Part shown: positions 11,730 through 26,988 of the stretch, piece by piece
Layout: each line of letters starts with the position of its first letter
Numbering within the stretch: position 1 is the first letter of the stretch
Assembly (NCBI GenBank): GCA_016190505.1
Contig: JACPQM010000021.1
Coordinates: forward strand, 1-59,152
Reading direction: 5' to 3'
Length of the DNA: 59,152 nucleotides
Source of the DNA: Chloroflexota bacterium
Lineage (GTDB): Bacteria; Chloroflexota; Dehalococcoidia; JACPQK01
Notes under the pieces: model-generated
Databases searched by the model: none
The model's input: the letters and a program-made list of their open reading frames with translations, nothing else
What the model was told of the DNA's origin: nothing
Position numbers and translations under genes: made by a program

Positions 11730-11790
11730 TTGACGGGCGGGCGGCGCTCGGTTATTGTAAGCAAGGCACAAACCCCCTGGGTGGGGGTAT
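11730..11790 (+). promoter_or_regulatory. Sigma70-type promoter (TTGACG-17-TATTGT) plus downstream pseudo-palindromic operator 'ACCCCCTGGGTGGGGGTAT' (CsoR-like)
   Basis: Same architecture and near-identical operator as the sites at 12559-12622 and 21314-21378. Confidence 0.55.
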
Positions 11791-11837
11791 CGGCAGTGGG
11801 CAATGAACGCTGATTACAATGTCGAGGGTATGACGAC

Positions 11838-12512
11838 GTGCCAAAGAACAACACCAGGAAACGCGACAAGAAGCCCCGCCGGGGCAGGCGAATAGCCAGC
11901 GCCCTGCTCAACGCTGGCTTGATACTCCTGCTGGTGGTACTGACGCTTGCCCTGGGTGGAGCGCTGGCCCGCATCTTCGGCATATGGGGCGGCGACGAGG
12001 CGGACCACCAGGCTGCCCAGGCCGCTCAGCAGCTCCAGGACATAGCCACCGCCTCGGCTGTCCAGCAGGGGACGCCCGCACCCAACACCCCAGCAGGGCC
12101 ACCAAAGCGCATGGGGCCGGTGGAGGTCTCCACCACTGAGGTGGACCTGGGGCAGGTCCCCATCAGCCGGTGGGTGACCCCAAGCTTCAAGGTGCGTAAC
12201 GTCGGCCAGGCCCCTCTGGTGCTCATGTTCGACAACGTGGAGACCCTGGAGGGCTGCTGACCACCCATGCCAGTGGCGGGTCCCGCCACCACAGGCAACG
12301 TCTATGTCTTCAACAACATGCAAGGCACCCCCCTGCCCCGGCCGGTCATGGGCAGCCTCGACCCGCAACAGGAGGTAGAGGTCTGGCTTCAGATGTCCAT
12401 GGACCCGGGCATGGCCGGACCCCACCACTTCCGCCTCAAGGTATACCTGGCCGAGGAAAGTGGCCAGGAGTACCCGCCCCTGGAGTTCCACGTCAAGGGA
12501 ATGTTCGGATAA
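11838..12512 (+). CDS. Membrane-anchored DUF1573-like protein interrupted by an in-frame TGA at 12258-12260 (candidate selenocysteine codon or pseudogene)
   Basis: ORFs 11838-12260 and 12267-12512 are in the same frame: '...FDNVETLEGC-TGA-PPMPVAGPATTGNVYVF...'. N-terminal basic tail plus TM helix. 'VDLGQVPISRWVTPSFKVRNVGQAPLVLMFDNVETLEGC' resembles the DUF1573 fold, which carries a 'SCGCT' motif at this position. A 7-bp-stem/3-nt-loop (GUC) hairpin lies 13 nt downstream of the TGA. Confidence 0.4.
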
Positions 12513-12533
12513 GCACAGATTGCCGATGCTTCC

Positions 12534-12559
12534 GTAGGGGCGACCGGCCGGTCGCCCCT
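12534..12559. repeat. REP hairpin 'gtaggggcgaccggccggtcgcccct'
   Basis: Perfect palindrome; further copies at 19382-19409 and 19450-19477 (variant), and relatives at 28064-28091, 29990-30150 and 32095-32250. Confidence 0.6.
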
Positions 12560-12622
12560 TGACAGTACCGTCGGCAAGGGCTAGTATGTAGTCGTAAACC
12601 CTCACCCCCTGGGTGTGGGTAT
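12559..12622 (+). promoter_or_regulatory. Sigma70-type promoter (TTGACA-17-TAGTAT) plus operator 'CACCCCCTGGGTGTGGGTAT' upstream of csoR-copA
   Basis: The operator sits between -10 and the SD/ATG of csoR. Matches the GC-rich ATACCCC-N-GGGGTAT type of CsoR-family operators. Confidence 0.6.
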
Positions 12623-12631
12623 GGAGGCAGG

Positions 12632-12898
12632 ATGAAGCCGGAGACCAAGGCAGACGCCTTGAAGCGCCTGAACTACATAGAGGGGCACCTGAGCGGGGTG
12701 CGCCGCATGATCGAGCAGGACCAGTACTGCGTGGACGTGCTCAAGCAGATGTACGCCGTGCGCCAGGCCATTCGCAAGCTGGAGGCGCTCATTCTGGATG
12801 GCCACCTGCACACCTGCGTCGTCCACGGCATCCGGGACAACCGGGAGGAGCAGGTGGTCAACGAGCTACTCGACCTGTACAACCTGGCCGAGAAATAG
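12632..12898 (+). CDS. csoR: Copper-sensing transcriptional repressor CsoR (DUF156 family)
   Basis: 88 aa; DUF156 core 'YIEGHLSGVRRMIEQDQYCVDVLKQ...LDGHLHTCV' with a C...H...C ligand set typical of CsoR (rather than RcnR). Directly upstream of copA. Confidence 0.85.
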   Translation: MKPETKADALKRLNYIEGHLSGVRRMIEQDQYCVDVLKQMYAVRQAIRKLEALILDGHLHTCVVHGIRDNREEQVVNELLDLYNLAEK

Positions 12899-12907
12899 AG
12901 GGGCATT

Positions 12908-15478
12908 TTGGGCGAAACCAAACGTGCAGACGGCGTAGGGGCGCACGGCCGTGCGCCCCTACAGATGCCCATACGGGGCATGACTTGCGCCTCCTGCGTG
13001 GCCACCGTGGAAGGCGCCTTGAAGAGCGTGCCCGGCGTCAGCGCGGCCGTGGTCAACCTGGCCTCGGAGAAGGCGGCGGTGGAGATCAGCGATCCGCAGA
13101 AGGCCAACCTGCCCGAGCTGGTCAAGGCCGTCCACGAGGTAGGCTACGAGGTGGGCACTGAGAAGGTCACCATCTCCGTGGGAGATATGACCTGCGCCTC
13201 CTGTGTGGAGCACGTGGAAGGCGCTCTCCGCGAGCTGGCCGGGGTCACCCGGGCCGTGGTCAATCTGCCCACCGAGCGCGCCGCCGTGGAGTACATCCCC
13301 GGCCTGGTCGGCGTCGCCGACTTCCGGCATGCCATCGAGGATGTCGGCTACAAGTTCCAGGGCCTGGTGGAGGAGGGGGCCGCCGCTCTCGATAGAGAGC
13401 GCGAGGCCCGCCAGAAGGAGATCAGCCGCCAGCGCCGGAACCTGATCATCTCCTGGGCCCTAGGCCTGGTGATCATGGTGGGCACCTTCCAGCCGTACTG
13501 GTTCCTGCCCAGGGTCGTGCCCGCGTTCATGAACAATAAGATATTCCTGTTCTTCCTGACCACACCTATCGTCTTCGGGCCGGGCCGCCAGTTCTTCATC
13601 AACTCCTGGAATGGTCTCAAGCGCGGCCTGACCGACATGAACCTCCTCTACGCCACGGGAATCGGCGCCGCCTACCTTATCGCCGTCATCAACACCTTCT
13701 TCCCCGATGCCGGCTTCGGCGGGCGGGAGGCCACCTTCTACGAGGCGGCTGCCCTGCTCACCGCCTTCATCATCCTGGGCCGCTACCTGGAGGCGGTGAC
13801 CCGGGGGCGCACCTCCGAGGCCATCCGCCGCCTGATGAAGCTCCAGCCCAAGCGGGCACGGGTGCTCCGCGACGGACAGGAGGTCGAGGTCGCTGCCGAG
13901 GAAGTGCAGATAGACGACCTCTTGCTGGTCCGGCCCGGCGAGGCCATCCCCGTGGACGGCATGGTCACCGAAGGCTACTCCTCGGTGGACCAGTCCATGA
14001 TTACCGGGGAGAGTATCCCCGTAGAGAAGAAGGGGGGGGACGAGGTCATCGGGGGCACCATCAACAAGACCGGCGCCTTCAGGTTCCGGGCCACCCGCGT
14101 GGGCAAGGATACCGCCCTGGCCCAGATCATCAAGCTGGTGGAGGAGGCCCAGACCACCAAGGCCCCCATCCAGAAGATCGCCGACAAGGTGGCCGGCCAC
14201 TTCATCCTGGGGGTACACGCCCTCTCCCTGGCCGTGTTCCTGTTCTGGTTCTTCGTGGGCTTCGGCCTGTGGTTCAGCCCCGAGAGCCGCCTCATCCTTA
14301 CCCCCTACATGCTCACAGGTCTGGGCGTGTTCGGCTTCGCTCTACTGGTGTCGGTGACCGTGCTGGTTATCTCCTGCCCCTGCGCCGTGGGACTGGCCAC
14401 GCCTAGCGCGGTGATGGCGGGCACGGGCAAGGCCGCCGAGTACGGAATCCTGTTCAAGGGCGCCGACGCCCTGGAGAGCACCGCCCGCCTCCAGGTGGTC
14501 ATCTTTGACAAGACGGGCACCCTGACCAAGGGCGAGCCTTCCGTCACCGACGTGGTGGCCGTGGGCCGGAGCGAGCAGGAGGTGCTGCGCCTGGCCGCGG
14601 TGGCGGAGAAGAACTCGGAGCACCCGCTGGGCGAGGCCATCGTTCGAGGCGCCCGGGCCACAGGCATGGAGGTCCAGGACGCCGACGGCTTCGAGGCCAT
14701 CCCCGGCCACGGGGTCGAGGCCCGACTGAATGGCCGGACGGTCCTGCTGGGCAACCGCCGCCTTATGGCCCAGAGGAACGTCTCCCTGGACGGCCTGATG
14801 CCCCAGGCCGAGCGACTGGAAGGCGAGGGCAAGACCGCCATGTTCGTGGCCGTGGACGGCCAGCCCGCCGGTATCGTGGCCGTGGCCGACACTCTCAAGG
14901 AGACCTCCGCCCAGGCCGTCAAGGAACTCCACCGCATGGGCCTCCAGGTAGCCATGATCACCGGCGACAACCGCCGTACCGCCGATGCCATCGCCCGCCA
15001 GGTGGGCATTGACCGGGTGCTGGCCGAGGTGCTCCCCGAGGACAAGGCCAGCGAGGTGAAGAAGCTCCAGGCCGAGGGCCTCAAGGTGGCCATGGTGGGC
15101 GACGGCATCAACGACGCCCCTGCCCTGGCCCAGGCCGACTCCGGCATCGCCATCGGCTCGGGCACCGACGTGGCCAAGGAGACGGGCCACGTCATCCTGG
15201 TCAAGGACGACCTCATGGATGTGGTGGCAGCCATCCAGGTGGCCCGGCAGACCCTGCGCCTGATCAAACAGAACCTGGGCTGGGCCTTCGGCTACAATAC
15301 CGCGGCCATACCCATCGGGGCGGGCTTGCTCTACCCCTTCTTCTCCCAAGTGGTCAGCCCGGAGCTGGCCGCGCTGCTTATGGCCACCAGCTCCCTGTCG
15401 GTGACCATGAACACCCTGCGCATGAGGGGCTACATACCGCCCATCCGGCGGGCGCGGCTGGCGGAGGCGAAGGCATGA
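12908..15478 (+). CDS. copA: Copper-translocating P1B-type ATPase with two N-terminal HMA domains
   Basis: 856 aa; 2x 'GMTCASCV'; '[11 protein letters not shown]' (CPC), 'DKTGTLT', 'GDGINDAP'. Confidence 0.93.
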
Positions 15479-15672
15479 GTGCCAGCGTGATTGGCGCCGT
15501 CATCTACCTGGGCATCTCGCTGGTGGCGGCCCTGGTCTTCTTCGCCATCACCCTGGCCGGAGACTACACCTGGGTGGCCCGCATTGGCGGCAGCCTGTGG
15601 ATCTTCATGCTGGGCAACATCGTGCTCATGCCCCTAGTCATCCCCAGGGTGAAGAGGTGGCGGGGAGGCTAG
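15475..15672 (+). CDS. Small two-TM membrane protein, translationally coupled to copA (ATGA overlap)
   Basis: 65 aa, hydrophobic; start overlaps the copA stop. Confidence 0.4.
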
Positions 15673-15710
15673 CGTGGTAAGCATCGCTTGAGGGCAACAG
15701 GAGCCATAAG

Positions 15711-15980
15711 ATGCCCGTAATATCAATGTTCTATGGCATAATAGTTCAACTGTTCTTCTTCGATACAGACAAACATAATAGCCCGCACATTCACGTGAGA
15801 TATGCTGAGTTCACCGCTTCTATTGACATACACACAGCAGGAATCTTGGATGGAGACATCCCTCTGCGCCAACTTAGACTAGTCCAGGCATGGGTGGAAA
15901 TCCACCGCGATGAATTGATGGCTGACTGGGCTCTTGCCGTGGAGGGCAACACTCCGTTCAAGATTGAACCTCTGAAATAG
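15711..15980 (+). CDS. DUF4160-family protein
   Basis: 89 aa; 'HNSPHIHVRYAEF' motif; markedly AT-richer than its surroundings. Confidence 0.68.
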   Translation: MPVISMFYGIIVQLFFFDTDKHNSPHIHVRYAEFTASIDIHTAGILDGDIPLRQLRLVQAWVEIHRDELMADWALAVEGNTPFKIEPLK

Positions 15981-15990
15981 GGGGTAGTGA

Positions 15991-16227
15991 ATGATCCCAG
16001 ACGTGGTTGACTTTGAAATCCTGCCAGACTACCGGCTAAGGGTGACCCTGTCAAATGGCCGTAAAGGGGTGTTCGACGTGAAGCCATACCTTGACCGAGG
16101 AATTTTCACTGAACTGAAGGACTACAACTACTTCAGAAGGGGCAAAATCGCTTTCGGGACAATTACCTGGCCGAACGAACAGGACTTCAGCCCGGAGACA
16201 ATAGAAGCGAGGATGGAAGGGGAATGA
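15991..16227 (+). CDS. DUF2442-family protein (usual partner of DUF4160)
   Basis: 78 aa; 'LPDYRLRVTLSNGRKGVFDVKPYL'; AT-rich. The DUF4160/DUF2442 gene pair is a recurrent two-gene cassette. Confidence 0.68.
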   Translation: MIPDVVDFEILPDYRLRVTLSNGRKGVFDVKPYLDRGIFTELKDYNYFRRGKIAFGTITWPNEQDFSPETIEARMEGE

Positions 16228-16299
16228 GAAGGGGCTGGGGAGCGTAGGCATGGTAAGCCTCGCCCGGCGCAAGCCGCTTGTTGGAAAGGGTGTTTAGCT

Positions 16300-16923
16300 G
16301 TGGAACAGTGCCCCGAACCATTCGTAGTCCGGCTCGTCCGGCCCCCACTCCATATGATTCTCTGTGAGGGCTTGCGCAAGCGCACTGCCAGAGACTTTCA
16401 GGGTGTGATCGCTCAACTACTTCGGGAGATTGGTGGTGATGTGACGCCCGGGCCGATAGGAGCGGACGAAGGGGTAGACCTGCTGTGGAAGGCCACCGAC
16501 GGAGAGTTCATCGTCCAATGCAAGAAATGGAAGGCCAAAGTCGGTGTTCCTGTCGTGCGAGAGGTCTTCGGGGCGGCTATGCGGCACAAGTCCGCAGGTG
16601 CCATCATCGTGACCACAAGCGAGTTCACCGATGCAGCCAAAGACTGGACAATTGACCTCCGCATACCGCTTAGGCTGGTGGATGGCAAGCAGTTGTTTGA
16701 CTTGATGGACCAACGCATGCCAACTTTCGTGGCGAACGTCTTCAAAGAGGCCAATGTGGCTAGGTGCCCAGTGTGTGGGGATGGCGTGGACCTCCGCCTA
16801 GCCAAGGTATCCACGTCCTACGAGAACAAAGCGTATTACTTCTGGGCCGAGACTTGCCTCCGGTTGTTCCAGAGGGAACCCGGTCGCTTCGTCGGTGTGA
16901 AGTCTCCCAGAGCAGAAGGCTAG
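16300..16923 (+). CDS. Fusion protein: Mrr_cat-like restriction-endonuclease domain plus C-terminal YHS/TRASH metal-binding domain
   Basis: 'GADEGVDLLWKATDGEFIVQCKKWKAKVGVPVVREVFGA' (Mrr_cat: D..D...QCK), then 'CPVCGDGVDLRLAKVSTSYENKAYYFWAETC...FQREPGRF' (YHS-like). Confidence 0.55.
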   Translation: MEQCPEPFVVRLVRPPLHMILCEGLRKRTARDFQGVIAQLLREIGGDVTPGPIGADEGVDLLWKATDGEFIVQCKKWKAKVGVPVVREVFGAAMRHKSAGAIIVTTSEFTDAAKDWTIDLRIPLRLVDGKQLFDLMDQRMPTFVANVFKEANVARCPVCGDGVDLRLAKVSTSYENKAYYFWAETCLRLFQREPGRFVGVKSPRAEG

Positions 16924-16924
16924 C

Positions 16925-18058
16925 GTGGTCAGCATCGCCCGGCGCAACCTCTTCGCCGAACGGGGCCGCCTGTTCATAAGCGTGGGTGGGGTGGCCTTCG
17001 CCGTGTTGCTTATCCTGACGCTCTTGGGCCTCTATCGCGGCTTCACCAGGGCCTTCACCCTCTACATTGACAACGTCAAGGTGGACCTGTGGGTAGCCCA
17101 GCAGGGGGCCCGGGCCGACATGATGCACTCGGTGTCCCTGATGCCCCGGGGTACTCAAGGCAAGCTCGAAGCCGTGCCTGGAGTTGAGGAAGTGCACCCC
17201 TTCATCGGGCGCTCGGTGGTCTTTCCCTGGAAGGGAGAGGCTGTGAGCACCTACCTGGTGGGGTACGACGTGGACTCCAACCTGGGAGGGCCGCTCCGAG
17301 TGGCCCAAGGGAAAGCTGAGCCGGGGCCCGGAGAGATCATCGTTGACAAGGTATTCTCCCGCAACAAAGGGATCAGCCTGGGCGACCGGCTGCCCATCGG
17401 AGGGTCGCTGAGGGCGGACAGCAGTCCGCCCCTACAGGTGGTGGGCGTCGCCGAGGGCGGCAACACGGGCCTCTTCCAGTTTTCCTTCGTCTCCCGAAAC
17501 GAGGCCGAAAGTCTGTTGCAGATGACGGGCTTCGCCAACTACTTCCTGGTGCACCTGGACAGGGGCCAGGACCCGGCCCAAGCCGCGGCGCGCATCGAGG
17601 CGGCAGCCCCTGGGGTGAAGGCATTCACCGTTTCGGCCTTCTCCGAGAGCAACCGCGAGCTGCTCACCGAGATCTTCCTGCCTATCATCGCCGTCCTGGT
17701 GCTCATCGGTTTCGGCGTGGGCACCGTAGTGATAGGGCTGACCATATACACCGCCACCATGGAGAAGTCCCGGGAGTATGGCGTGCTCAAGGCCATCGGG
17801 GCAACCAACCGCCGCCTTTACCGGATAGTCCTGGAGCAGGCGATCATATCGGACATGCTGGGCTATGCCCTGGGAGTGGTGCTGGCCTTTGTCGTGGTCG
17901 GAGCGGCCGAGCGGTTCGTGCCCGTGTTCGTGGCCGACCTCCAAGTCCTGGACCTGGCGGCAGCACTGGGCATTGCCCTGCTCATGGGCGGACTGGCGTC
18001 ATACTTCCCGGTGAGCCGGCTGGTGCGCCTGGACCCCGCCCTGGTGTTTCGAGCGTAG
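16925..18058 (+). CDS. ABC transporter permease, FtsX/MacB-like
   Basis: 377 aa; N-terminal TM, large periplasmic domain, three C-terminal TMs; followed by its ATPase. Confidence 0.78.
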   Translation: MVSIARRNLFAERGRLFISVGGVAFAVLLILTLLGLYRGFTRAFTLYIDNVKVDLWVAQQGARADMMHSVSLMPRGTQGKLEAVPGVEEVHPFIGRSVVFPWKGEAVSTYLVGYDVDSNLGGPLRVAQGKAEPGPGEIIVDKVFSRNKGISLGDRLPIGGSLRADSSPPLQVVGVAEGGNTGLFQFSFVSRNEAESLLQMTGFANYFLVHLDRGQDPAQAAARIEAAAPGVKAFTVSAFSESNRELLTEIFLPIIAVLVLIGFGVGTVVIGLTIYTATMEKSREYGVLKAIGATNRRLYRIVLEQAIISDMLGYALGVVLAFVVVGAAERFVPVFVADLQVLDLAAALGIALLMGGLASYFPVSRLVRLDPALVFRA

Positions 18059-18059
18059 C

Positions 18060-18905
18060 ATGGCCACCGATACGGTACTCGAGCTGGTGGGCGTGACCCG
18101 GGTGTTCGGGGAAGGCGCCGGGCAGGTGGTGGCTGTGGAGAGGGCGGACCTACGGGTCGGGAAGGGGGAGTTGCTGCTTATCATGGGCCCCTCGGGCTCG
18201 GGGAAGACCACGCTCCTCACCATGGCCGGGGGCTTGCTCCCGCCCACCTCGGGCCACATCCGCCTGGGCGGCCGCGACCTCACCGCTCTGTCCGATGGAG
18301 AACTCTCCCGCCTGCGGCAGCAGCACATCGGCTTTGTCTTCCAGTCGTTCAACCTGCTGGCCGCCCTGACCGCGCTGGAGAATGTCGAGGTGGCCCTGGG
18401 GCTAGCGGGCAGGGACGGTCAGGGCGCCAAACGGGAGGCCCGCCGTCTGCTGGAGGACCTGGGCCTGGGACACCGCCTCCACCATCACCCGCGAGACCTG
18501 TCAGGTGGGGAGAAGCAGCGGGTATCCGTGGCCCGCGCCCTGGCCAACAACCCCGAGCTGGTGCTGGCCGACGAGCCTACCGCCAACCTGGACTCGCAGA
18601 AGGGCCGTGAGGTGGTAGAGCTGCTGCGCAAGGTGGCCAAGGAAATGGGCAAGACGGTCATCGTGGTCAGCCACGACCACCGCATTCGGGAGCTGGCGGA
18701 CCGGGTGCTGTGGCTGGAGGACGGCAAGCTCAAAGAGATGGAGGTACACCGGGACCCGGTCTGCGGCATGGAGATAGACCCCGCCCGGGCCAAGGCCAGC
18801 CTGGCGTACGAGGGCAAAGTCTACTACTTCTGTGCCGCAGGCTGTCTCCAGTTGTTCCAGAAGGACCCCGGTCAGTTCTTGGCGTCACAGTCATCCGCCC
18901 TGTGA
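18060..18905 (+). CDS. ABC transporter ATP-binding protein (MacB/LolD-like) fused to a C-terminal YHS metal-binding domain
   Basis: Walker A 'GPSGSGKTT', signature 'LSGGEKQRVSVARAL', Walker B 'LVLADEPT'. C-terminal 'DPVCGMEIDPARAKASLAYEGKVYYFCAAGC...FQKDPGQF'. Confidence 0.85.
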   Translation: MATDTVLELVGVTRVFGEGAGQVVAVERADLRVGKGELLLIMGPSGSGKTTLLTMAGGLLPPTSGHIRLGGRDLTALSDGELSRLRQQHIGFVFQSFNLLAALTALENVEVALGLAGRDGQGAKREARRLLEDLGLGHRLHHHPRDLSGGEKQRVSVARALANNPELVLADEPTANLDSQKGREVVELLRKVAKEMGKTVIVVSHDHRIRELADRVLWLEDGKLKEMEVHRDPVCGMEIDPARAKASLAYEGKVYYFCAAGCLQLFQKDPGQFLASQSSAL

Positions 18906-18938
18906 GGGCAACATTCACCGTTAGGAGGGACAAGACAA

Positions 18939-19106
18939 ATGGAAAAGAAGGTTGTTCTGTGTAAGGACTGCCATTGCTGCCCCGCCGTGGAGTTCGACGA
19001 GGACAGGGTGCGCATCGGCGAGGGCTACAACACGACCATTCTGACCAAGGAACAGTGGAACATTCTGGTGGAGAAGGTCAGGTCCGGGGAGCTGGGGGAA
19101 GCGTGA
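18939..19106 (+). CDS. Small cysteine-rich protein (55 aa, below the ORF-track cutoff)
   Basis: 'MEKKVVLCKDCHCCPAVEFDEDRVRIGEGYNTTILTKEQWNILVEKVRSGELGEA'; good SD 'taggaggg' 8-16 nt upstream; C-x2-C-x-C-C motif. Confidence 0.45.
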   Translation: MEKKVVLCKDCHCCPAVEFDEDRVRIGEGYNTTILTKEQWNILVEKVRSGELGEA

Positions 19107-19187
19107 CCTCGGGCAAGGCCGCGTCGGCGGTGGGCGAACGCCCTGGCGGGCGTGGAAACTTGTGTCATACCTGTGAAGGAGGTAACC

Positions 19188-19364
19188 ATGGCTAAGGACC
19201 TGGTGTGCGGGATGGAAGTGGACCCCAAGAAGGCAGCCGCCAAGTCGGACTACAAGGGGCAGACCTACTACTTCTGTGCCCCCGGCTGCAAGCGCGCCTT
19301 CGACAAGGAGCCGGAGAAGTTCCTCAAGGGCCAGGCCGGCGGCCACATGGGGATGCACCACTAG
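19188..19364 (+). CDS. Stand-alone YHS-domain protein with a His/Met-rich tail
   Basis: 'MAKDLVCGMEVDPKKAAAKSDYKGQTYYFCAPGCKRAFDKEPEKF...GGHMGMHH'; SD 'gaaggagg' upstream of ATG 19188. Confidence 0.7.
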   Translation: MAKDLVCGMEVDPKKAAAKSDYKGQTYYFCAPGCKRAFDKEPEKFLKGQAGGHMGMHH

Positions 19365-19381
19365 CTGGGCTCGGCCCCACG

Positions 19382-19477
19382 GTAGGGGCGACCGGCCGGT
19401 CGCCCCTACGATCGCCTGGTAACGTCTAATCTCGGGTACGAGCAAGACTGTAGGGGCGGACGGCCGTCCGCCCCTAC
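19382..19477. repeat. Two tandem REP hairpins ('gtaggggcgaccggccggtcgcccctac' and 'gtaggggcggacggccgtccgcccctac')
   Basis: Perfect 12-bp stems 40 nt apart, immediately downstream of the YHS gene; terminator-like / BIME-like. Confidence 0.65.
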
Positions 19478-19489
19478 GATTGCTCCGGC

Positions 19490-20059
19490 ATGGCGCTCGC
19501 AGGGCAACGTGAAGGGGTATTTGTATCTGAAAGCATGGTGACTGAGAGACCGCGACCCCGGCGCCGGGGTGTCCTCGTCCTCGTGGTGGTCCTGGTACTG
19601 GCGTTCCTGGCGATGTTCGTCTATGCTTTCCAGTCCACCGTCCTGGTGCGCCGCGCTGGCATCCCCGAGAAAGTGGGCGAGTTGGAGCTGGTCAGCAAGG
19701 TGGAAGGAGAGGCGGCCATCGCCCAGGTCGGACGCCTGCACGGCACCGACATTGCCCTGAAAGACGCTTACATCGCCAAGTATGCCCATTCAGGCCTTCA
19801 GTTGACCGCCTGGGTGGGCAAAGCAGAGGATACGACCGCGGCAGCCGAGCTGCTCCGTAGGATGGTCGAGGGCATAAACCGCGGGGGATCACCCTTCTCC
19901 AACCTGCGCCAGCAGAGGATCGAGGACCAGGGGGTGTACCAGGTGGACGGGCCAGGCGGACGGCACTACTTCTACGCCTCTGACAACAAAGTCATCTGGC
20001 TCACCCTGGAAGGCACAGGTTACCAGACTCTATTGCCGATCGCAGTGAGTGCGTTCTAG
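19490..20059 (+). CDS. Hypothetical membrane-anchored protein
   Basis: 189 aa; N-terminal TM helix then a soluble domain; no recognised motif. Confidence 0.45.
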   Translation: MALAGQREGVFVSESMVTERPRPRRRGVLVLVVVLVLAFLAMFVYAFQSTVLVRRAGIPEKVGELELVSKVEGEAAIAQVGRLHGTDIALKDAYIAKYAHSGLQLTAWVGKAEDTTAAAELLRRMVEGINRGGSPFSNLRQQRIEDQGVYQVDGPGGRHYFYASDNKVIWLTLEGTGYQTLLPIAVSAF

Positions 20060-20555
20060 CGAGGGACAAGATGTGAACAGGTTTCGCTTCCCCTGGACAA
20101 TAGGAGTCGCCCTTACCCTGGTGGCGGTCGCCCTGGGGGCGTGCTCGTCACCGGGCTCGCCGCCCACTTCGACTGCTCCTCCCCCTTCGGGAACCACCGG
20201 CAAGTCGCCCACCAACGGGCTGGTGCAGACCCACTCCGGAGGCAACGTGACCATCGAGGTGAAGTGGCGGGGGAGTCCCGACGGGTCGGGGCTGGCCTTC
20301 CAGGTGACCATGGACACTCATTCGGCAGACCTGGACCAATACGATCTGGGTAAGCTGGCCCTGCCGCCGGACGACGCGGGACGGGAGTACGCTCCGACCG
20401 CCTGGGTGTCCGCCCCGGGCGGTCACCACCGAGAAGGCACCCTGAAGTTCCCCGTGCCAGACTCCTTGGCGCTGGGCAGCGCCCGCTCGGTCCAGCTTAT
20501 CATCCGGGGCGTTGCCGGAGTGGCTGAACACGCCCTGGTATGGCAACTGGCATGA
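20049..20555 (+). CDS. Hypothetical lipoprotein (lipobox 'ALGAC')
   Basis: Signal peptide plus Cys; Pro/Ser/Thr-rich linker; beta-rich domain; start uncertain. Confidence 0.45.
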   Translation: MRSSEGQDVNRFRFPWTIGVALTLVAVALGACSSPGSPPTSTAPPPSGTTGKSPTNGLVQTHSGGNVTIEVKWRGSPDGSGLAFQVTMDTHSADLDQYDLGKLALPPDDAGREYAPTAWVSAPGGHHREGTLKFPVPDSLALGSARSVQLIIRGVAGVAEHALVWQLA

Positions 20556-20668
20556 TTCTGCCTCTCGCCTGAACGCATATGGGGGCTGTGGCGTCGGATC
20601 AGACGGATCGGACGCATCGGTCAAATCGGTCTGGCCACAATCGTGGTTGGTAGGAAGAAGGCATCTGC

Positions 20669-21199
20669 GTGAGAAGACACCTTGCCGTCGCAGTGGCCGC
20701 TGCCGCGCTGCTCCTGGCGGTGTACCTGGGCATCATCACTCTGGCCCAGGGATGGTCGCACGCTCTGGGCCAAACTCTCGACCTGTGGTACTGGGTTGTA
20801 CTGCTAGCCGCTGGCTTTGGCACCCAGGCCGGGCTTTACTCCTTCATCCGCCAGGGGCTACGGGAGTCCCGACGAGTCGGGACCACCGCCTCGGTGGCTG
20901 CCTCAGGCGGCGTGTCCACCGGCTCCATGGCGGCCTGCTGCGCCCACCACCTGAGCGACGTGCTGCCCGCCCTGGGCCTGGCGGGAGTGGCCACTTTCCT
21001 GACCAGCTACCAGACAGTGTTCATCCTGGCCGGGGTGCTGTCCAACCTGGTGGGCATCACCATCATGCTGGAGGCGATCCAGCGCCACGGGCTGTCCCCA
21101 TGGGTCTCGACCTGGCCGTGGAACATGCGCCGGGTCAAGCTGGGGGCCATTGCCTCTTCGGCAGTGGTAGTATCAGTGGGCGTCGTTATGAGCCTGTAG
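20669..21199 (+). CDS. Polytopic membrane protein with an intramembrane 'CCAHH' motif
   Basis: 176 aa; 5 predicted TM helices; 'SMAACCAHHLSDVLPALG' is a potential metal-binding cluster. Confidence 0.5.
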   Translation: MRRHLAVAVAAAALLLAVYLGIITLAQGWSHALGQTLDLWYWVVLLAAGFGTQAGLYSFIRQGLRESRRVGTTASVAASGGVSTGSMAACCAHHLSDVLPALGLAGVATFLTSYQTVFILAGVLSNLVGITIMLEAIQRHGLSPWVSTWPWNMRRVKLGAIASSAVVVSVGVVMSL

Positions 21200-21313
21200 C
21201 CCTCGTTTCTGGGGAACGCGCCCCATAGCCGAGGTCCTCCTTCCAGAACGGCGCAGATTGCCGGACGCGCCCCACACTGGTAGCCTCCAGGCTGAGCACG
21301 TTGATTGTGCCTC

Positions 21314-21378
21314 TTGACACAAACCATGCGGCACCCTATAATCGAGGTTGATACCCATACCCCCTGGGTAGGGGATGG
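21314..21378 (+). promoter_or_regulatory. Consensus sigma70 promoter (TTGACA-17-TATAAT) plus operator 'ATACCCATACCCCCTGGGTAGGGGATGG' upstream of ccmE
   Basis: Perfect -35/-10 hexamers with a 17-nt spacer. The downstream pseudo-palindrome is near-identical to those ahead of csoR and the DUF1573-like gene. Confidence 0.6.
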
Positions 21379-21390
21379 AAGGAAGAGAGC

Positions 21391-21843
21391 ATGACAGGGA
21401 ACGCGCTACAACCCATGCCCGCTGCCCCGACTGGTCCCCCCAGGCCGAAACCCCACCGCCGGTGGAGACTCCTCATCGTCGGTGGTATCGTGCTGCTCGC
21501 CCTGGGCTTCCTGGGCTTCAAGGCCTTCCAGGGGGCAGCCATGTTCTACTACACCGTCCCCGAGTTCAGGGCCTCACCGGAGTACACCACGGGCGAACAG
21601 GTCCGCGTGGGGGGCAAGGTGGCGCCCGGCTCCGTGGAACGCCACCAGTCGGGCCCGGGCCTGAGTTTCGCCGTCACCGACGGCTCGGACAAGCTCCTGG
21701 TCCACTTCTACGACATCGTGCCCGATTCCTTCGCCGTGGACCAGGACGTGGTCGTGGAGGGGACCATGAGCGCCGAGGGCTACTTCGCCGCCCAGAACCT
21801 CATGGTCAAGTGCCCCTCCAAGTACGTGCCGAGAGTGGGGTGA
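21391..21843 (+). CDS. ccmE: Cytochrome c maturation haem chaperone CcmE, CxxxY variant
   Basis: 150 aa; TM anchor plus OB-fold; 'VVVEGTMSAEGYFAAQNLMVKCPSKYVP' aligns to E. coli 'VVVQGELEKG..LAKEVLAKHDENYTP' with Cys in place of the haem-binding His130. Confidence 0.78.
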   Translation: MTGNALQPMPAAPTGPPRPKPHRRWRLLIVGGIVLLALGFLGFKAFQGAAMFYYTVPEFRASPEYTTGEQVRVGGKVAPGSVERHQSGPGLSFAVTDGSDKLLVHFYDIVPDSFAVDQDVVVEGTMSAEGYFAAQNLMVKCPSKYVPRVG

Positions 21844-21847
21844 TAAC

Positions 21848-23794
21848 ATGGCCGACCTGGGATACGCTGCCCTAGTTATCGCCCTGGCCGCCGCCGCCTT
21901 CGCCACAGTGGCGCCCCTGGTGGGCCTACGCTGGCGGCTGCCAGCCCTTATTGACAGCGGGCGCAGCGCGCTCTGGGCTGCGGCTAGCCTGGTGTCCGTC
22001 GCCGGGCTGTCCCTGCTCTACCTGCTGGCCACGCGCGATTTCAAGACCCAGTACGTGTACCAGTACACCAGCAGCGATATGTCTATGCTCTACACCCTGG
22101 CCGCGTTCTGGGCAGGGAACGCCGGCTCACTCCTGTTCTGGGCGTGGACCCTGGGCCTGTGCGCCGTAGTCATGCTCATACAGAACCGAAACAAGAACCA
22201 GGCCCTCATGCCCTACGTCACGGCCATAGTCGCGGTCACCATGGGCTTCTTCGTGGGCATGATGGTCTTCGTCTCTAACCCCTTTGACCAAATGGTCTTC
22301 CCTCAGGCCGAGGGAGAGGGCCTCAACCCGCTGCTGGAGAACATGGGCATGTTCCTCCACCCACCCCCTCAGCTCCTGGGGTACATGGCCTTTACCATTC
22401 CTTTTGCCTTCGCCGTCGCCGCCCTGGCTACGGGCCGGCTGGGTGACGAGTGGATTCAGAGCATCCGCCGGTGGACGATCTTCGCCTGGCTGACCCTGGG
22501 CGTGGGCATCCTGGCCGGCGCCCAGTGGGCCTACGTGGAGTTGGGCTGGGGGGGCTACATGGGCTGGGACCCGGTGGAGAATGCCGCCCTCATGCCCTGG
22601 CTGGTGGGGACCGCCTTCCTGCACTCGATCATGGTGCAGCGGCGCCGGGGGATGCTCAAGGTCTGGAACATGATGCTCATCATCTTCACCTTCAATCTGA
22701 GCATTCTGGGCACCCTTCTCACCCGCAGTGGCATTCTGTCCTCGGTGCACTCCTTCTCCCAGTCGGGCCTGGGCCCGCTGTTTGTGGCCTTCATCGCCGT
22801 CGCCATGACCGGCTCCCTGGCCTTGCTCTACTACCGCATGCCCAAGCTCCGGGCAGAGCACGAGCTGGACTACTGGGTTTCCCGAGAGAGCACCTTCCTG
22901 GTGAACAACCTGGTGCTGGTGGGCATCGCCTTCGCCGTCTTCTGGGGCACCATGTTCCCGATCATTACCGAGGCGGTGCGGGGTGTAAAGATAACGGTGG
23001 GCCCGCCCTTCTACAATCAGGTGACGGGACCTCTCTTTCTGATACTGCTCTTGGTGATGGGCATCTGTCCCCTCATCGGCTGGCGGCATGCCTCCAAGGA
23101 CAACCTGGTCCGCAACTTCCTCTATCCCGTGGCCTTTGGCGTGGCAGCGGGCATCATCCTGTTCCTGCTCGGGGTGAGAAAACCGGCCGCCACCATATCT
23201 TTCGCTGTGCTCGCTTTTGTGACCGCAGGCATCCTCCGCGACTGGTCCCGGGCGGTGCGCGCCCGGCGCCAGATGAGGGCCGAGGGCTGGCTGCGCGCCT
23301 TCCTCCGGCTCACGGGCTCCAACCGGCCCCGCTATGGGGGCTACATCGTGCATCTGAGCGTGGTGGTTATGGCCCTGGGCATCACCGGCTCGATGTTCTA
23401 CCCACTGGAGACCACCGCCACGCTCAACCCCGGCGAGACCGTGTCCATTGGCCGCTATGTCCTCAAATTCGAGGGTGCCTCCGAGTATCAGACGCAGAGC
23501 AAGCAGGTGCTGGCCAGCACGCTGACCGTCTACACCGGCGGCGACTACCTGGGCACGGTGACCCCAGAGCGCTACATCCATCGCAACCACGATAACCCCG
23601 TGACCGAGGTGGCCATCCGCAGCACCCTGAAGGAAGACCTCTACGTTATCTACGGGGGCAAGAACCCCGACGGCACGGCCACCTTCAAGTTCAAGGTGAA
23701 CCCGATGGTCATGTGGATCTGGATCGGTTGGGGTGTGATGCTGCTGGGCTCGGCGGTGGCCTTCTGGCCGGAGATGAAGCGATGGACCGCATAG
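21848..23794 (+). CDS. ccmF: Cytochrome c-type biogenesis protein CcmF (haem lyase)
   Basis: 648 aa; ~15 TM segments; WWD domain 'WGGYMGWDPVENAALMPWL'. Confidence 0.9.
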   Translation: MADLGYAALVIALAAAAFATVAPLVGLRWRLPALIDSGRSALWAAASLVSVAGLSLLYLLATRDFKTQYVYQYTSSDMSMLYTLAAFWAGNAGSLLFWAWTLGLCAVVMLIQNRNKNQALMPYVTAIVAVTMGFFVGMMVFVSNPFDQMVFPQAEGEGLNPLLENMGMFLHPPPQLLGYMAFTIPFAFAVAALATGRLGDEWIQSIRRWTIFAWLTLGVGILAGAQWAYVELGWGGYMGWDPVENAALMPWLVGTAFLHSIMVQRRRGMLKVWNMMLIIFTFNLSILGTLLTRSGILSSVHSFSQSGLGPLFVAFIAVAMTGSLALLYYRMPKLRAEHELDYWVSRESTFLVNNLVLVGIAFAVFWGTMFPIITEAVRGVKITVGPPFYNQVTGPLFLILLLVMGICPLIGWRHASKDNLVRNFLYPVAFGVAAGIILFLLGVRKPAATISFAVLAFVTAGILRDWSRAVRARRQMRAEGWLRAFLRLTGSNRPRYGGYIVHLSVVVMALGITGSMFYPLETTATLNPGETVSIGRYVLKFEGASEYQTQSKQVLASTLTVYTGGDYLGTVTPERYIHRNHDNPVTEVAIRSTLKEDLYVIYGGKNPDGTATFKFKVNPMVMWIWIGWGVMLLGSAVAFWPEMKRWTA

Positions 23795-24273
23795 CCCGCC
23801 TGGCGGGTTTGCTCGCCCTGCTGGGGTTGGCCGCAGCGACGCCGACGGTGGCCCTGGCGGCCTCGCCGGACCAGGTCAATGAGATCGCCAGCCAGTTGGT
23901 ATGCCAGTGTGGCTGCGGGCTGGTGCTCAACAACTGCAACCACGAGCACTGCGAACCGCGTGACAGCATGCTGGCCTACATCGGCCAGGCCCTGGACCAG
24001 GGCAAGACCAGGGACGCCATCATCGCTAGCCTGGTCGAGAGCTACGGCGAGGTGGTCCTGGCCGCCCCCACCAAGCGTGGGTTCAACCTCGTGGGCTGGA
24101 TCACGCCCTTCGCCGCCATCGCGGCGGGCGGAGGCATAGTCTACCTGGCGGTGCGCGCCTGGCTGGTCTGGGGCAAGCGCACTCGGGAGGAAGCAGTGGA
24201 GCTCGCGGCGGACGACCCCTACTTGAGCCGCGTTGATGACGAGCTGAGACGCTACGAGGAAAGGATGGGTTAG
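23782..24273 (+). CDS. ccmH: CcmH/CycL-like cytochrome c biogenesis protein
   Basis: Start chosen at 'MDRIARLAGL' to avoid overlap with ccmF. Signal peptide, 'LVCQCGCGLVLNNC' Cys cluster, C-terminal TM. Confidence 0.65.
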   Translation: MDRIARLAGLLALLGLAAATPTVALAASPDQVNEIASQLVCQCGCGLVLNNCNHEHCEPRDSMLAYIGQALDQGKTRDAIIASLVESYGEVVLAAPTKRGFNLVGWITPFAAIAAGGGIVYLAVRAWLVWGKRTREEAVELAADDPYLSRVDDELRRYEERMG

Positions 24274-24741
24274 ATGGTCTGGCTGGCCCTGCTTCTGGCA
24301 CTGGGCACCGTGTTGGCCATCGCCTACCCGCTGGTGCGCCCCCGCCTCCGGGCGGCCGGGCCGGCCCCCGATCCCGAGGCCTCGGAGCTGGCGGCCGCCA
24401 AGGAATCTACTTACGCGGCCATCAAAGAGCTGGAGTTCGACTACCGGGCGGGCAGCCTTTCCCAGGAAGATTACCGGGACCTGGAGTCGAGATACAAGCG
24501 GAAGGCTGCCGCCTTGCTCCAGGTGGAGGATGCCCGCCACAGCGAGGCCGACCGCCGCGCCCAGATCGAGGCAGAGATACGCAGGCTGCGCGGCGTTCCT
24601 GCCCAGCCCCCCAAACAACGACAGGCTGCGCCGCCTGCCACAGGCCGCTTCTGCACCCAGTGCGGCTCGCCCAGCGACCCCACCGACCGCTTTTGCGCCA
24701 ATTGTGGCCATCCCCTATCCAAAGCTGGGAGTAAAGCATGA
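24274..24741 (+). CDS. Membrane-anchored protein with a C-terminal double zinc ribbon
   Basis: 155 aa; N-terminal TM; 'RFCTQCGSPSDPTDRFCANCGHPL'. Confidence 0.5.
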   Translation: MVWLALLLALGTVLAIAYPLVRPRLRAAGPAPDPEASELAAAKESTYAAIKELEFDYRAGSLSQEDYRDLESRYKRKAAALLQVEDARHSEADRRAQIEAEIRRLRGVPAQPPKQRQAAPPATGRFCTQCGSPSDPTDRFCANCGHPLSKAGSKA

Positions 24742-25916
24742 GCAAACTTCTCCGAGTCGCTCCGGGCCTGGCCAGCAGCATTGCCATCGCCCTCTGGTTG
24801 ATGGCCCCTGTCATGGCACAGGCCCCAGAGAGTGTACCTGTCCGCGGGCAACTGGTAAACGGCACCAAGGATGGACCTGTCCCCGCCAACGTCCAGGTCA
24901 AGCTGACCGAGCCTACTGAAGAAGGCCAGGAGCTGGCCCAGACCACCACCGACGCGGAAGGCCGCTACCAGTTCGCCGAGTTCGCGGCACAGGCCGGCGC
25001 CAAGTACAAGGTAACTCTGAACTACCAGGGCGCCGACTACCAGGCCGACTGGCCTCCCGAGGACCCGGCCAAGGGCCTGGCAATCATAGTGTATGAGGCC
25101 ACCACCGATCCATCGTCAATCTCCGTCAAAAGCTGGCACATCCTGGTCCAGGCGGGCCAGGGCATCCTGGACATAGACGAGTTCATGGTCTTTGAGAACA
25201 CCAGCGACCGGGCCTACGTGGGCACCCAGGTGGTGGACGACCAGGGCAGAAAGGCTACCCTCAAGTTCTCCGTTCCCAAGGGTGCCTACGGCTACCAGTA
25301 CATGCAAGGGTTAATGGACTGCTGCATGGTTCCTACTGCCAGTGGAATCGTGGACACCATGGCGGTGCTCCCAGGCACCAAAGAGGTGTTCTTCCACTAC
25401 TTTGTGGATGCCAAGTCGGGGACCTACGACCTGGCCCGGCTTGTGGACTACCCGGCGGCGGACGTCCGCCTGCTGTCGCAGGACATCGGGCCCAGGGTCA
25501 GCAGCAGTCTGCTCGCCAACCAGGGCCCGGTGACCGACGCCAACGGGACCAAGTACCTTAGCCTGACCGCCGCCAACCTGACCCCTGGCTCGGTCGTCAC
25601 CGCCAGCTTCACCGGGGTCCCCACGAAGGGCCTCCAGAGCAACCTGCGCTGGCTGGGCGTAGGCGTGCTGGTGCTCGCCGTGGGGGGCGTGGCCGTGGCC
25701 TACCCCGTGCTGCGCCGGCGGGGTAGGGGCCGCGAAGCCGAAGCCGAGTCCCCTACCTCCACCTCGGAGCGCGAGCGCCTCCTGTTCGAGGTGGCCGACC
25801 TGGACAACCGCTACGAGCGTGGCGAGGTCCCCGAGGCCGAGTACCAGTCCCGGCGCAAAACGCTGATGGACATCCTGGTCTACCTCTCCGAGCAAGAGAA
25901 GGGTGACGACGAGTAG
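24738..25916 (+). CDS. Secreted protein with a carboxypeptidase-regulatory-like beta-sandwich domain, C-terminal TM anchor and acidic tail
   Basis: Signal peptide; 'VRGQLVNGTKDGPVPANVQVKL...TTTDAEGRYQFAEF'; TM 'WLGVGVLVLAVGGVAVAYPVL'. Confidence 0.5.
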   Translation: MSKLLRVAPGLASSIAIALWLMAPVMAQAPESVPVRGQLVNGTKDGPVPANVQVKLTEPTEEGQELAQTTTDAEGRYQFAEFAAQAGAKYKVTLNYQGADYQADWPPEDPAKGLAIIVYEATTDPSSISVKSWHILVQAGQGILDIDEFMVFENTSDRAYVGTQVVDDQGRKATLKFSVPKGAYGYQYMQGLMDCCMVPTASGIVDTMAVLPGTKEVFFHYFVDAKSGTYDLARLVDYPAADVRLLSQDIGPRVSSSLLANQGPVTDANGTKYLSLTAANLTPGSVVTASFTGVPTKGLQSNLRWLGVGVLVLAVGGVAVAYPVLRRRGRGREAEAESPTSTSERERLLFEVADLDNRYERGEVPEAEYQSRRKTLMDILVYLSEQEKGDDE

Positions 25917-25946: not shown

Positions 25947-26639
25947 ATGGGGAGCCACACGCAAATGCGCATCAACAATCTGACGCTTGGTCTGATTGCG
26001 GCCGGCATGGTGGCCGCGCTCTATCTGGCCTTCCTGTATGCCCCCACCGAGGCCATGATGGGCGACGTGCAGCGCATCTTCTACTTCCACGTGCCCATGG
26101 CCTGGGTGGCCTTCCTGGCCTTTGGGGTGGTGTTCGCCGGGTCGGTGCTCTACCTGTGGAAGGGGGAAGAGCGCTGGGACCGGCTGGCCTACGCCGCCGC
26201 CCATCTGGGCGTCATCTTCACATCGCTGAACGTGGTCACCGGCATCCTGTGGGCCAAGCCCATCTGGGGGACGTGGTGGGTATGGGACCCCCGGCTGACC
26301 ACCACCACGGTGCTCTGGATCATCTACATCGCCTACCTGGTGGTGCACAATGCCGCCGAGACCGGGCGCGGGTCACACTTCGCCGCCGTGTTCGGCATCG
26401 TGGGCTTCGTGGATGTCCCCGTGGTCTACATGTCCATACGCTGGTGGCGGACGATGCACCCGGCGCCGGTCATCGCCGGCGGCAGCGATAGCGGCCTGGC
26501 CCCGTCCATGCTGTTTACCCTGCTGTTCAGCGTGGGGCTGTTCACGCTGTTCTTCGTCTACCTCCTCCGTCAGAGTCTCAGCCTGAGCCACCTGGAGGCG
26601 GAGGTCGAGAGACTTTCCCAGGAGGAGCGCGGTGGATAA
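25947..26639 (+). CDS. ccmC: Haem exporter protein CcmC
   Basis: 230 aa; WWD domain 'WGTWWVWDPRLTTT'; conserved His-containing loops. Confidence 0.85.
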   Translation: MGSHTQMRINNLTLGLIAAGMVAALYLAFLYAPTEAMMGDVQRIFYFHVPMAWVAFLAFGVVFAGSVLYLWKGEERWDRLAYAAAHLGVIFTSLNVVTGILWAKPIWGTWWVWDPRLTTTTVLWIIYIAYLVVHNAAETGRGSHFAAVFGIVGFVDVPVVYMSIRWWRTMHPAPVIAGGSDSGLAPSMLFTLLFSVGLFTLFFVYLLRQSLSLSHLEAEVERLSQEERGG

Positions 26640-26829
26640 CAACACGGGATTCCTGTTTGCCGGCTACGCCATTATCTGGCTGGCCTTCTTCGGCTACTGC
26701 TACCGGCTCTCCCGCCGCCTGGATTACCTGCGACGTCGGTTGGATGCGCTCAAACGAGGAGAGGCTGGCGAGCCACGGGCCAGTCCAGAGGTGGCAGCCG
26801 CCCAGACCGGAGAAACGGCACCGTTGTAG
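26632..26829 (+). CDS. ccmD: Haem exporter protein CcmD (small single-TM)
   Basis: 65 aa; 'FLFAGYAIIWLAFFGYCYRLSRRL'; overlaps the ccmC end. Confidence 0.6.
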   Translation: MDNNTGFLFAGYAIIWLAFFGYCYRLSRRLDYLRRRLDALKRGEAGEPRASPEVAAAQTGETAPL

Positions 26830-26988
26830 ATCTGGGTCTGGGCGGCCACAGGCCCCGCCCCGATCCCCGTAGCCCGTAGCCCGTAGCCCGTTTGAGCCTT
26901 GACAGCCCAAGCTGGCCTACCTATAATTCAGGCGTTCTTGCCACGGAGGAGGTCGTTAGGTTTGTTCCTGTCCAGGGGGTGAGGCGCC

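Follow-up and report, generated by a model that had tools for sequence, protein, structure and literature searches.

Probable CsoR operators upstream of a selenoprotein candidate, csoR-copA and a cytochrome c maturation cluster in a Chloroflexota contig

Does a copper sensor of the CsoR family control, besides copper export, a cytochrome c maturation cluster? The question is raised by a contig of 59,152 bases from a Chloroflexota bacterium (JACPQM010000021.1), which was analyzed over its whole length, called the window here, with regulon members counted both on this contig and in relatives. The contig has three promoters that are each followed by a GC-rich palindromic box, and these lie ahead of a selenoprotein candidate, of csoR-copA and of a System I cytochrome c maturation (ccm) cluster, respectively. 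Based on sequence comparison, the boxes are probably operators of the CsoR encoded at 12632-12898, which would thus control three units. To our knowledge, CsoR regulons have so far been described as small sets of copper export and chaperone genes, and we know of almost no experimental data on regulation in Chloroflexota. A CsoR box kept upstream of a System I ccm operon would provide a direct genetic route from copper status to cytochrome c biogenesis, a link so far seen as a toxicity phenotype in Rubrivivax and, in Corynebacterium, as a change in transcripts that lacks an explanation. The promoters and boxes are as follows:

11730..11758, + strand: promoter P1, TTGACG-17-TATTGT (consensus scan, 9/12 consensus matches)
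11766..11790, + strand: putative operator 1, upstream of the selenoprotein candidate (weakest matrix score, 24.0 bits)
12559..12587, + strand: promoter P2, TTGACA-17-TAGTAT (consensus scan, 10/12)
12598..12622, + strand: putative operator 2, AACCCTCACCCCCTGGGTGTGGGTA, upstream of csoR (34.8 bits)
21314..21342, + strand: promoter P3, TTGACA-17-TATAAT (consensus scan, 12/12)
21353..21377, + strand: putative operator 3, TACCCATACCCCCTGGGTAGGGGAT, upstream of ccmE (35.6 bits; kept in two sister species)

A preliminary description of this DNA had placed three promoter-box modules at 11730-11790, 12559-12622 and 21314-21378, and all three were found in those places. The consensus scan agreed with its account of the promoters, namely a -35 of the form TTGAC(A/G), a spacer of exactly 17 nt and a TA-type -10. 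The description was less exact downstream of the -10, where its interval of about 13 nt fits the distance to the core (ACCCCC) at site 1 (13 nt) but not at sites 2 and 3 (16 nt each), and where its consensus, although it captures a motif that is present, blurs the right ends of the boxes, which read GGGTAT at sites 1 and 2 and GGGGAT at site 3. Measured to the 5' end of the 25-bp box, the distances from the -10 are 7, 10 and 10 nt. It had also set a Shine-Dalgarno sequence and an ATG behind each box, which does not apply to site 1, since the ATG at 11804 is out of frame and the gene starts with the GTG at 11838, 48 nt past the box. The distance from box to start codon therefore varies, from 10 to 48 nt, while the spacing to the -10 is fixed.

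The core of the box, ACCCCCTGGGTNNGGG, occurs exactly three times in the 59,152 bases, at 11772, 12604 and 21359, and all three copies are on the + strand. When up to two mismatches were allowed there were eight matches in the window versus a mean of 2.3 in shuffled sequences, and none of 100 shuffles reached eight. Operator 1 has a perfect inner palindrome (ACCCCC-TGGGT-GGGGGT) but lacks the left TACCC half-site of the outer pair. When the three modules were aligned, identity was confined to the -35 with the C-rich stretch that precedes it, the -10 and the box, while the sequence between these conserved blocks differs, and we therefore rejected the recent duplication of a single promoter cassette as their origin. 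An internal control is available on the same contig:

26899..26927: fourth perfect promoter, TTGACA-17-TATAAT, directly after the ccm cluster, without a box

Given this promoter, strong promoters on the contig do not generally carry the box.

In order to determine which genes the box accompanies elsewhere, one genome per species (185,579 species) was scanned with the pattern ACCCCCTGGGTRKGGGWW, and at least 118 stretches with a box were obtained. In at least 55 of these, among the matches listed, the box lies at most 160 nt upstream of a csoR homologue. The products of these 55 listed loci are 37-80% identical to the CsoR of the window (median about 64%), and the gene is mostly followed by copA. 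Nearly all of the listed csoR-proximal records (52/55) are labelled Dehalococcoidia, Ktedonobacterales, Chloroflexia, Anaerolineae, SAR202 or simply Chloroflexota, and the remaining matches listed are mostly inside long open reading frames (ORFs) of unrelated phyla and appear chance-like. The consensus of the 55 sites is TTACCCATACCCCCTGGGTAGGGGTAT, the central 25 bp of which form a near-perfect palindrome, TACCC-n-TACCC-ccT-GGGTA-n-GGGTA, with two TACCC repeats per arm. Type-2 CsoR sites have been described as G/C-tract pseudopalindromes between TAC/GTA dyads that are bound by two tetramers (PMC3902906). The operator consensus derived here, TACCCATACCCCCTGGGTAGGGGTA, has 10 of 12 positions paired and falls within that published type-2 definition. 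The proposal of the preliminary description that the motif is of the CsoR operator type is thus supported, at the level of sequence, by its association with csoR, its placement in promoters and its type-2 class.

A 29-nt matrix was then trained only on the 55 csoR-proximal sites of other genomes and applied to the window, where it scored 24.0 bits upstream of the selenoprotein gene, 34.8 bits upstream of csoR and 35.6 bits upstream of ccmE. The only other matches above 8 bits in the window were reverse-strand matches at two of the same sites (20.1 and 17.5 bits). Run within the window, the matrix scan therefore returned the three reported sites and no further box on the contig. Among csoR promoters elsewhere with a recognizable -35 and -10, the box starts 2-15 nt past the -10 in 29/30 (median 7). 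With its start 7-10 nt past the -10 in the window, the box covers the predicted transcription start, which is the usual position for a repressor.

The locus of the putative regulator comprises the following genes:

12632..12898, + strand: csoR, 88 aa, Cu(I) ligands C33, H58 and C62 (PF02583)
12908..15478, + strand: copA, P1B-type ATPase with two N-terminal HMA domains (Pfam)

The PF02583 (Trns_repr_metal) match spans the whole CsoR protein (E 3e-25, 88.8 bits versus a cut-off of 22.8). Its closest solved structure is CsoR of the Mycobacterium tuberculosis cso operon (2hh7, E 4e-16), and in the alignment the Cys-His-Cys ligands and the neighboring Tyr are conserved, with C33, H58 and C62 being the equivalents of Cys36, His61 and Cys65. 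The N terminus, MKPETKAD, is without a His or Cys ligand. Operator 2 is in csoR's own promoter, 10 nt before the start of csoR, with copA following, and the same layout of operator and csoR next to a copper-efflux ATPase gene is present in at least 55 other loci. No second csoR-family gene was found on the 59-kb contig.

This arrangement resembles several characterized systems. RicR, the CsoR paralogue of M. tuberculosis, provides a precedent for control of multiple scattered promoters by a repressor of the CsoR type. RicR is also the best NCBIfam match of the window CsoR, at 62.5 bits versus a cut-off of 175; the match being below the cut-off, the window protein is not considered an orthologue. 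The targets of mycobacterial CsoR and RicR are copper-defence genes, not cytochrome maturation genes. In Streptomyces lividans, CsoR is likewise a tetrameric Cu(I) sensor of family PF02583 that regulates itself and has sites across several promoters (csoR, copZA1 and copZA2), its operators being G/C-tract pseudopalindromes flanked by TAC/GTA dyads (PMC3902906). The two systems differ in that the Streptomyces site is 21 bp long (ATATACCCCTNAGGGGTATAT, TAC-X9-GTA) whereas the window-type site is 25 bp with two TACCC repeats per arm, in that the helix-1 motif is RLXR in S. lividans and RLNY in the window CsoR, and in that the window targets add ccm genes and a selenoprotein candidate. With as much as 22 bp between its dyads, the operator of M. 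tuberculosis is long as well, and the Chloroflexota site is closer to it in span (PMC3902906). The CsoR meta-regulon of Firmicutes from the human gut was, like ours, derived by comparative genomics, and shares a core of self-regulation and copA; csoR and copA make up >90% of the regulated promoters there, and no ccm, thioredoxin or selenoprotein genes were reported (PMC4938975). In summary of these comparisons, the repressor-operator mechanism is of a known kind, while the operator architecture and the predicted regulon content (System I ccm and selenoprotein) are new.

The wider scan indicated that other genes, too, may belong to such regulons in this phylum. Full double-TACCC boxes that are not at csoR were found in Chloroflexota at these positions:

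L036 and L064: upstream of HMA chaperones
L085 3051-3598: upstream of a cupredoxin (lipoprotein)
L059 and L076: upstream of His-rich P-type ATPases
L018 3498-4818 and L092 6445-7705: upstream of ArsP-type permeases
L032 2441-2831: upstream of a thioredoxin, with a consensus promoter

Such targets suggest that the Chloroflexota CsoR regulon is wider than the csoR-copA core of Firmicutes (PMC4938975) or the classical csoR-copA-copZ set, and that it reaches thiol-redox functions. The 25-bp double-TACCC palindrome of at least 55 csoR loci defines a predicted Chloroflexota CsoR operator that could be used for annotating copper regulons in metagenome-assembled genomes (MAGs).

The least expected of the three units is the ccm cluster, which consists of the following:

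21391..21843, + strand: ccmE, Cys variant with haem-binding motif CPSKY (PF03100, E 2.7e-28)
21848..23794, + strand: ccmF (PF16327 and PF01578)
23713..24273, + strand: ccmH (PF03918; ORF limits, the true start is probably later)
24274..25916, + strand: genes for a zinc-ribbon protein and a 392-aa secreted/membrane protein, both conserved in the cluster
25947..26829, + strand: ccmC (PF01578), then a 65-aa membrane ORF in the ccmD position

Pfam backs the identities of CsoR, CopA, CcmE, CcmF, CcmH and CcmC that the preliminary description had given, but its "ccmD" is an ORF with no family match, although this ORF is conserved in the second species described below (L004). No ccmA or ccmB was found in the cluster. 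In CcmE, which reads ...MVKCPSKY, a Cys replaces the haem-binding His (CXXXY), and CcmE proteins of this CXXXY type are found in archaea and in a few bacteria such as Desulfovibrio (PMC9084895). Unlike the archaeal set, the window cluster keeps ccmH and an ORF in the ccmD position. We know of no copper-dependent control described for System I systems with a CXXXY CcmE, and a literature search found no report linking CsoR to Ccm control.

Homologues of CcmF form a tight group at 88-89% identity, after which identity drops to 59% or less. In a second species (L004, NCBI ORJL011298823.1; JGI L124 and L125; L162-164) the ccmE promoter is TTGACA-17-TATAAT-16-ACCCCCTGGGTGGGGGAT, with a box of 36.5 bits, and the genes upstream of it differ from those of the window. 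The window and L004 are highly identical between about -50 and the end of the box, and less so further upstream and in the first ccmE codons. In a third species (L161, CcmE 84% identical) the order is TTGACA-17-TAGAAT, 9 nt and AAACCCCCACCCAGGGGAAGGGGGTT; here the box scores 26.0 bits on the opposite strand, the palindrome being kept but flipped, and its right arm is an ordinary GGGGGTT. The ccm link is, by this distribution, a lineage-specific, young addition to the regulon that has been kept in three species of one narrow lineage. Distant ccm loci, six of which include the region upstream of ccmE, gave no matrix match of 10 bits or more, and we therefore rejected the broader proposition that Dehalococcoidia-like Chloroflexota in general place ccm under CsoR.

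Two further observations concern these promoters and their relatives. In their ccmE promoters, all three species have a stretch ATTGTG(C/A)C(C/T)C that adjoins the -35 on its upstream side (window 21304-21313, L004 3281-3290, L161 250-259); it could serve as an additional regulatory site or as an UP-like element. In the distant relative L131 (2-1974, 3449-6761), copA is directly upstream of ccmC-ccmE-ccmF without a CsoR box, and the proximity of copper and ccm genes may thus recur by other routes.

The flipped box of L161 bears on an alternative that the preliminary description had itself raised, that the box is a hairpin of the 5' mRNA leader affecting stability or translation rather than a protein-binding DNA site. 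The box does begin close to the predicted start of transcription and has hairpin-forming potential, and sites 1 and 2 as well as that of L004 fold somewhat better than shuffled sequences (z -1.8 to -2.5). The predicted folds differ between sites, however, and for site 3 the fold is no improvement on shuffled sequence (z +0.45). The inverted ccmE box in L161 is more in keeping with a DNA site than with an RNA element, and both orientations also occur at csoR among the loci listed, 41 opposite to and 14 the same as the search pattern. Further, it is to the -10 and not to the start codon that the distance of the box is fixed, and an Rfam search of the three sites gave no match. In view of the orientations, the inconsistent folds and the Rfam result, we rejected an RNA element, which we regard as extremely improbable.

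A different partner for the ccmE box, and perhaps for site 1, has to be weighed against the encoded CsoR. Under this alternative the box would be bound by a CsoR/RcnR paralogue that is encoded at another place in the genome and senses, for instance, persulfide, nickel/cobalt or an aldehyde, and ccm would not be copper-responsive. CsoR-family members of similar fold do run non-copper regulons, an example being TTHA1953 and sulfur oxidation (PMC10318464). Some genomes also have two csoR loci with a box, among the matches listed (L070 and L114, from one MAG), and a GGGGAT variant of the right arm is common to ccmE boxes. Conversely, the contig encodes a single protein of the CsoR family, a matrix trained solely on csoR-proximal sites gives the ccmE box a score that equals or exceeds that of the csoR box (35.6 versus 34.8 bits), the ccmE box of the third species has the ordinary right arm, and the other box loci listed are overwhelmingly at copper genes. 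We consider a non-copper paralogue unlikely.

Several points nonetheless weigh against control of all three units by the encoded CsoR. A second CsoR-family paralogue of similar DNA specificity may be present elsewhere in the source genome. The ccmE boxes of the two species with the same orientation share a right arm of GGGGAT, not GGGGTAT, and this deviation could mean weaker binding or a different partner. No site of 10 bits or more was found in the distant ccm loci (33 loci at a CcmF identity of 32-54%, the upstream region being included in six). Lastly, full repression at a perfect promoter would remove c-type cytochromes at low copper, which would be odd unless repression is partial.

The gene behind operator 1 encodes a protein of a different kind:

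11838..12512, + strand: membrane-anchored selenoprotein candidate with a weak DUF1573/immunoglobulin-like (Ig-like) match, GTG start, in-frame UGA at 12258-12260
12273..12289, + strand: hairpin GUGGCGG-GUC-CCGCCAC, a candidate selenocysteine insertion sequence (SECIS), beginning 12 nt past the UGA

The public annotation of the product is 140 aa long and ends at the UGA, while the frame runs 83 codons further. The UGA is within a GC-U-PP motif, and a Met/His-rich stretch, MSMDPGMAGPHH, is near the C terminus, with MMMHKGMDGPH in the homologue P0155. A full HMMER search yielded 43 representatives. Of the 28 small representatives retrieved, 26 end at the residue aligned with query position 140, nearly all in LEGC or LQGC; a GC ending where the query has the UGA is present in 27, in 26 of them exactly at the C terminus. 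The sister-species homologue P0122 (79% identical) also ends in ...LEGC. Three relatives (P0152, P0155 and L111 at 3264-3605) have a Cys codon at the UGA position (GCC) and are read through, and in L067 (4963-5490) there is a TGA at the same position and the frame continues. Judged from these endings, gene callers routinely cut this family at the UGA. Hairpins of 7 bp lie 12 nt past the UGA in both the window and L067, in unrelated sequences; in this GC-rich context the fold is no better than in shuffles (z -0.22). The window protein did not match NCBIfam NF041425 (OS_HP2 family (seleno)protein), and its Cys homologue P0152 scored 35 bits versus a cut-off of 100; it is thus at most a distant relative of that family.

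Elsewhere, neighbors of the family include PCYCGC-motif proteins, YHS proteins, an FtsX/ABC pair and a CopY-type repressor. In the MAG OFTM331 a box is present both at csoR-copA (L109) and upstream of an operon with a homologue of the site-1 gene (L067), an arrangement that repeats sites 1 and 2 of the window. The site-1 product is therefore a candidate selenoprotein from a family associated with copper loci; it has a membrane anchor and an Ig-like domain that faces outward, and its motifs and neighbors lead us to infer Cu(I) binding. This suggests a possible copper role for a widespread selenoprotein family that is mis-annotated, its genes being cut short at the UGA.

The recurrence in OFTM331 also speaks to whether the ccmE and site-1 boxes are non-functional look-alikes, by chance or as relics, with only the csoR-copA box at work. 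Such a view can draw on the fact that about half of the genomic core-pattern matches listed are inside long ORFs and chance-like, and on site 1, which scores lowest and has an incomplete left arm. It is difficult to reconcile with three exact 14-base cores in 59 kb, far beyond chance, with the same place of all three boxes in their promoters, with the persistence of the ccmE box in three species while its flanks diverge, and with a site-1 homologue that is again behind a box in another genome. We therefore regard look-alikes as very unlikely.

If the three boxes are operators of the encoded CsoR, a mechanism can be outlined by analogy with characterized CsoR proteins. As long as copper is not in excess, CsoR tetramers on the box would block RNA polymerase, and Cu(I) binding to C33, H58 and C62 would cause CsoR to leave the DNA. 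Three units would then be derepressed: the membrane-anchored selenoprotein candidate with its Cys-Sec (selenocysteine) pair and Met/His-rich loop, csoR-copA, and the ccmE-F-H...C genes for System I cytochrome c maturation, an operon that a single narrow lineage of Chloroflexota would have recruited to the CsoR regulon. Cytoplasmic copper might in this way gate the production of c-type cytochromes, with CsoR shutting a consensus-strength ccm promoter until Cu(I) rises and with the regulon including an extracytoplasmic copper-handling Cys-Sec protein. We put forward this gating only tentatively, as a possibility to which we give somewhat less than an even chance. The purpose would be either repair of copper damage to the thiol-based Ccm pathway or a supply of cytochromes for copper-dependent respiration. 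If true, it would for the first time place selenium use and copper defence together with cytochrome maturation under a single metal sensor.

With respect to the first purpose, cytochrome c assembly is a periplasmic target of copper (PMC4600104). We speculate that Cu(I) exported by CopA attacks extracytoplasmic thiols of CcmE, CcmH and apocytochromes, and that extra ccm synthesis keeps haem attachment going; with an exposed Cys-type CcmE and a Cys-rich CcmH (CQCGC) as copper targets, more synthesis under copper stress would make sense. The alternative benefit would be that the supply of cytochromes is matched to copper-dependent respiration. The copper stimulon of Corynebacterium glutamicum offers a likeness, in that copper excess raises cytochrome c maturation transcripts there, those of ccsA and ccsB by a factor of about 3.6, along with transcripts for haem synthesis (PMC3140484). 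It differs in using System II (Ccs), and neither a regulator or site was identified nor a CsoR box implicated in that study (PMC3140484).

Other genes of the contig lie near these units or have possible copper functions. Downstream of copA (16300-18905) are genes for an Mrr-type nuclease-YHS fusion, an FtsX/MacB permease and an ABC ATPase with a C-terminal YHS domain. Pairs of FtsX and ABC(-YHS) recur by CsoR boxes or by the selenoprotein family elsewhere (L016, L159), which suggests that the FtsX/ABC-YHS genes encode a copper-related transporter. Between copA and the YHS genes, a DUF4160/DUF2442 pair (15711-16227) has a third-position GC of 0.52 versus about 0.85-0.9 in its neighbors and is probably a small inserted module. 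The gene for a CopC-CopD fusion (33858-35858), 12 kb downstream of the ccm cluster, was rejected as a regulon member as it has no box, so that not every copper gene on the contig belongs to the regulon; a secreted protein is encoded at 32860-33540.

Upstream of ccmE, three ORFs at 19490-21199 had no NCBIfam or Pfam match, and the gap before the ORF at 19490 gave a weak Rfam match to sroE (19445-19526, 29 bits versus a gathering threshold of 51, E 0.0017) that is probably due to chance. Lastly, hairpin palindromes of the form CCCTCTCCC-N3-5-GGGAGAGGG are repeated in the window at 1955-1978, 51389-51410 and 51959-51979, and are also present on contigs of distant relatives (L131 2670 and L145 1578).

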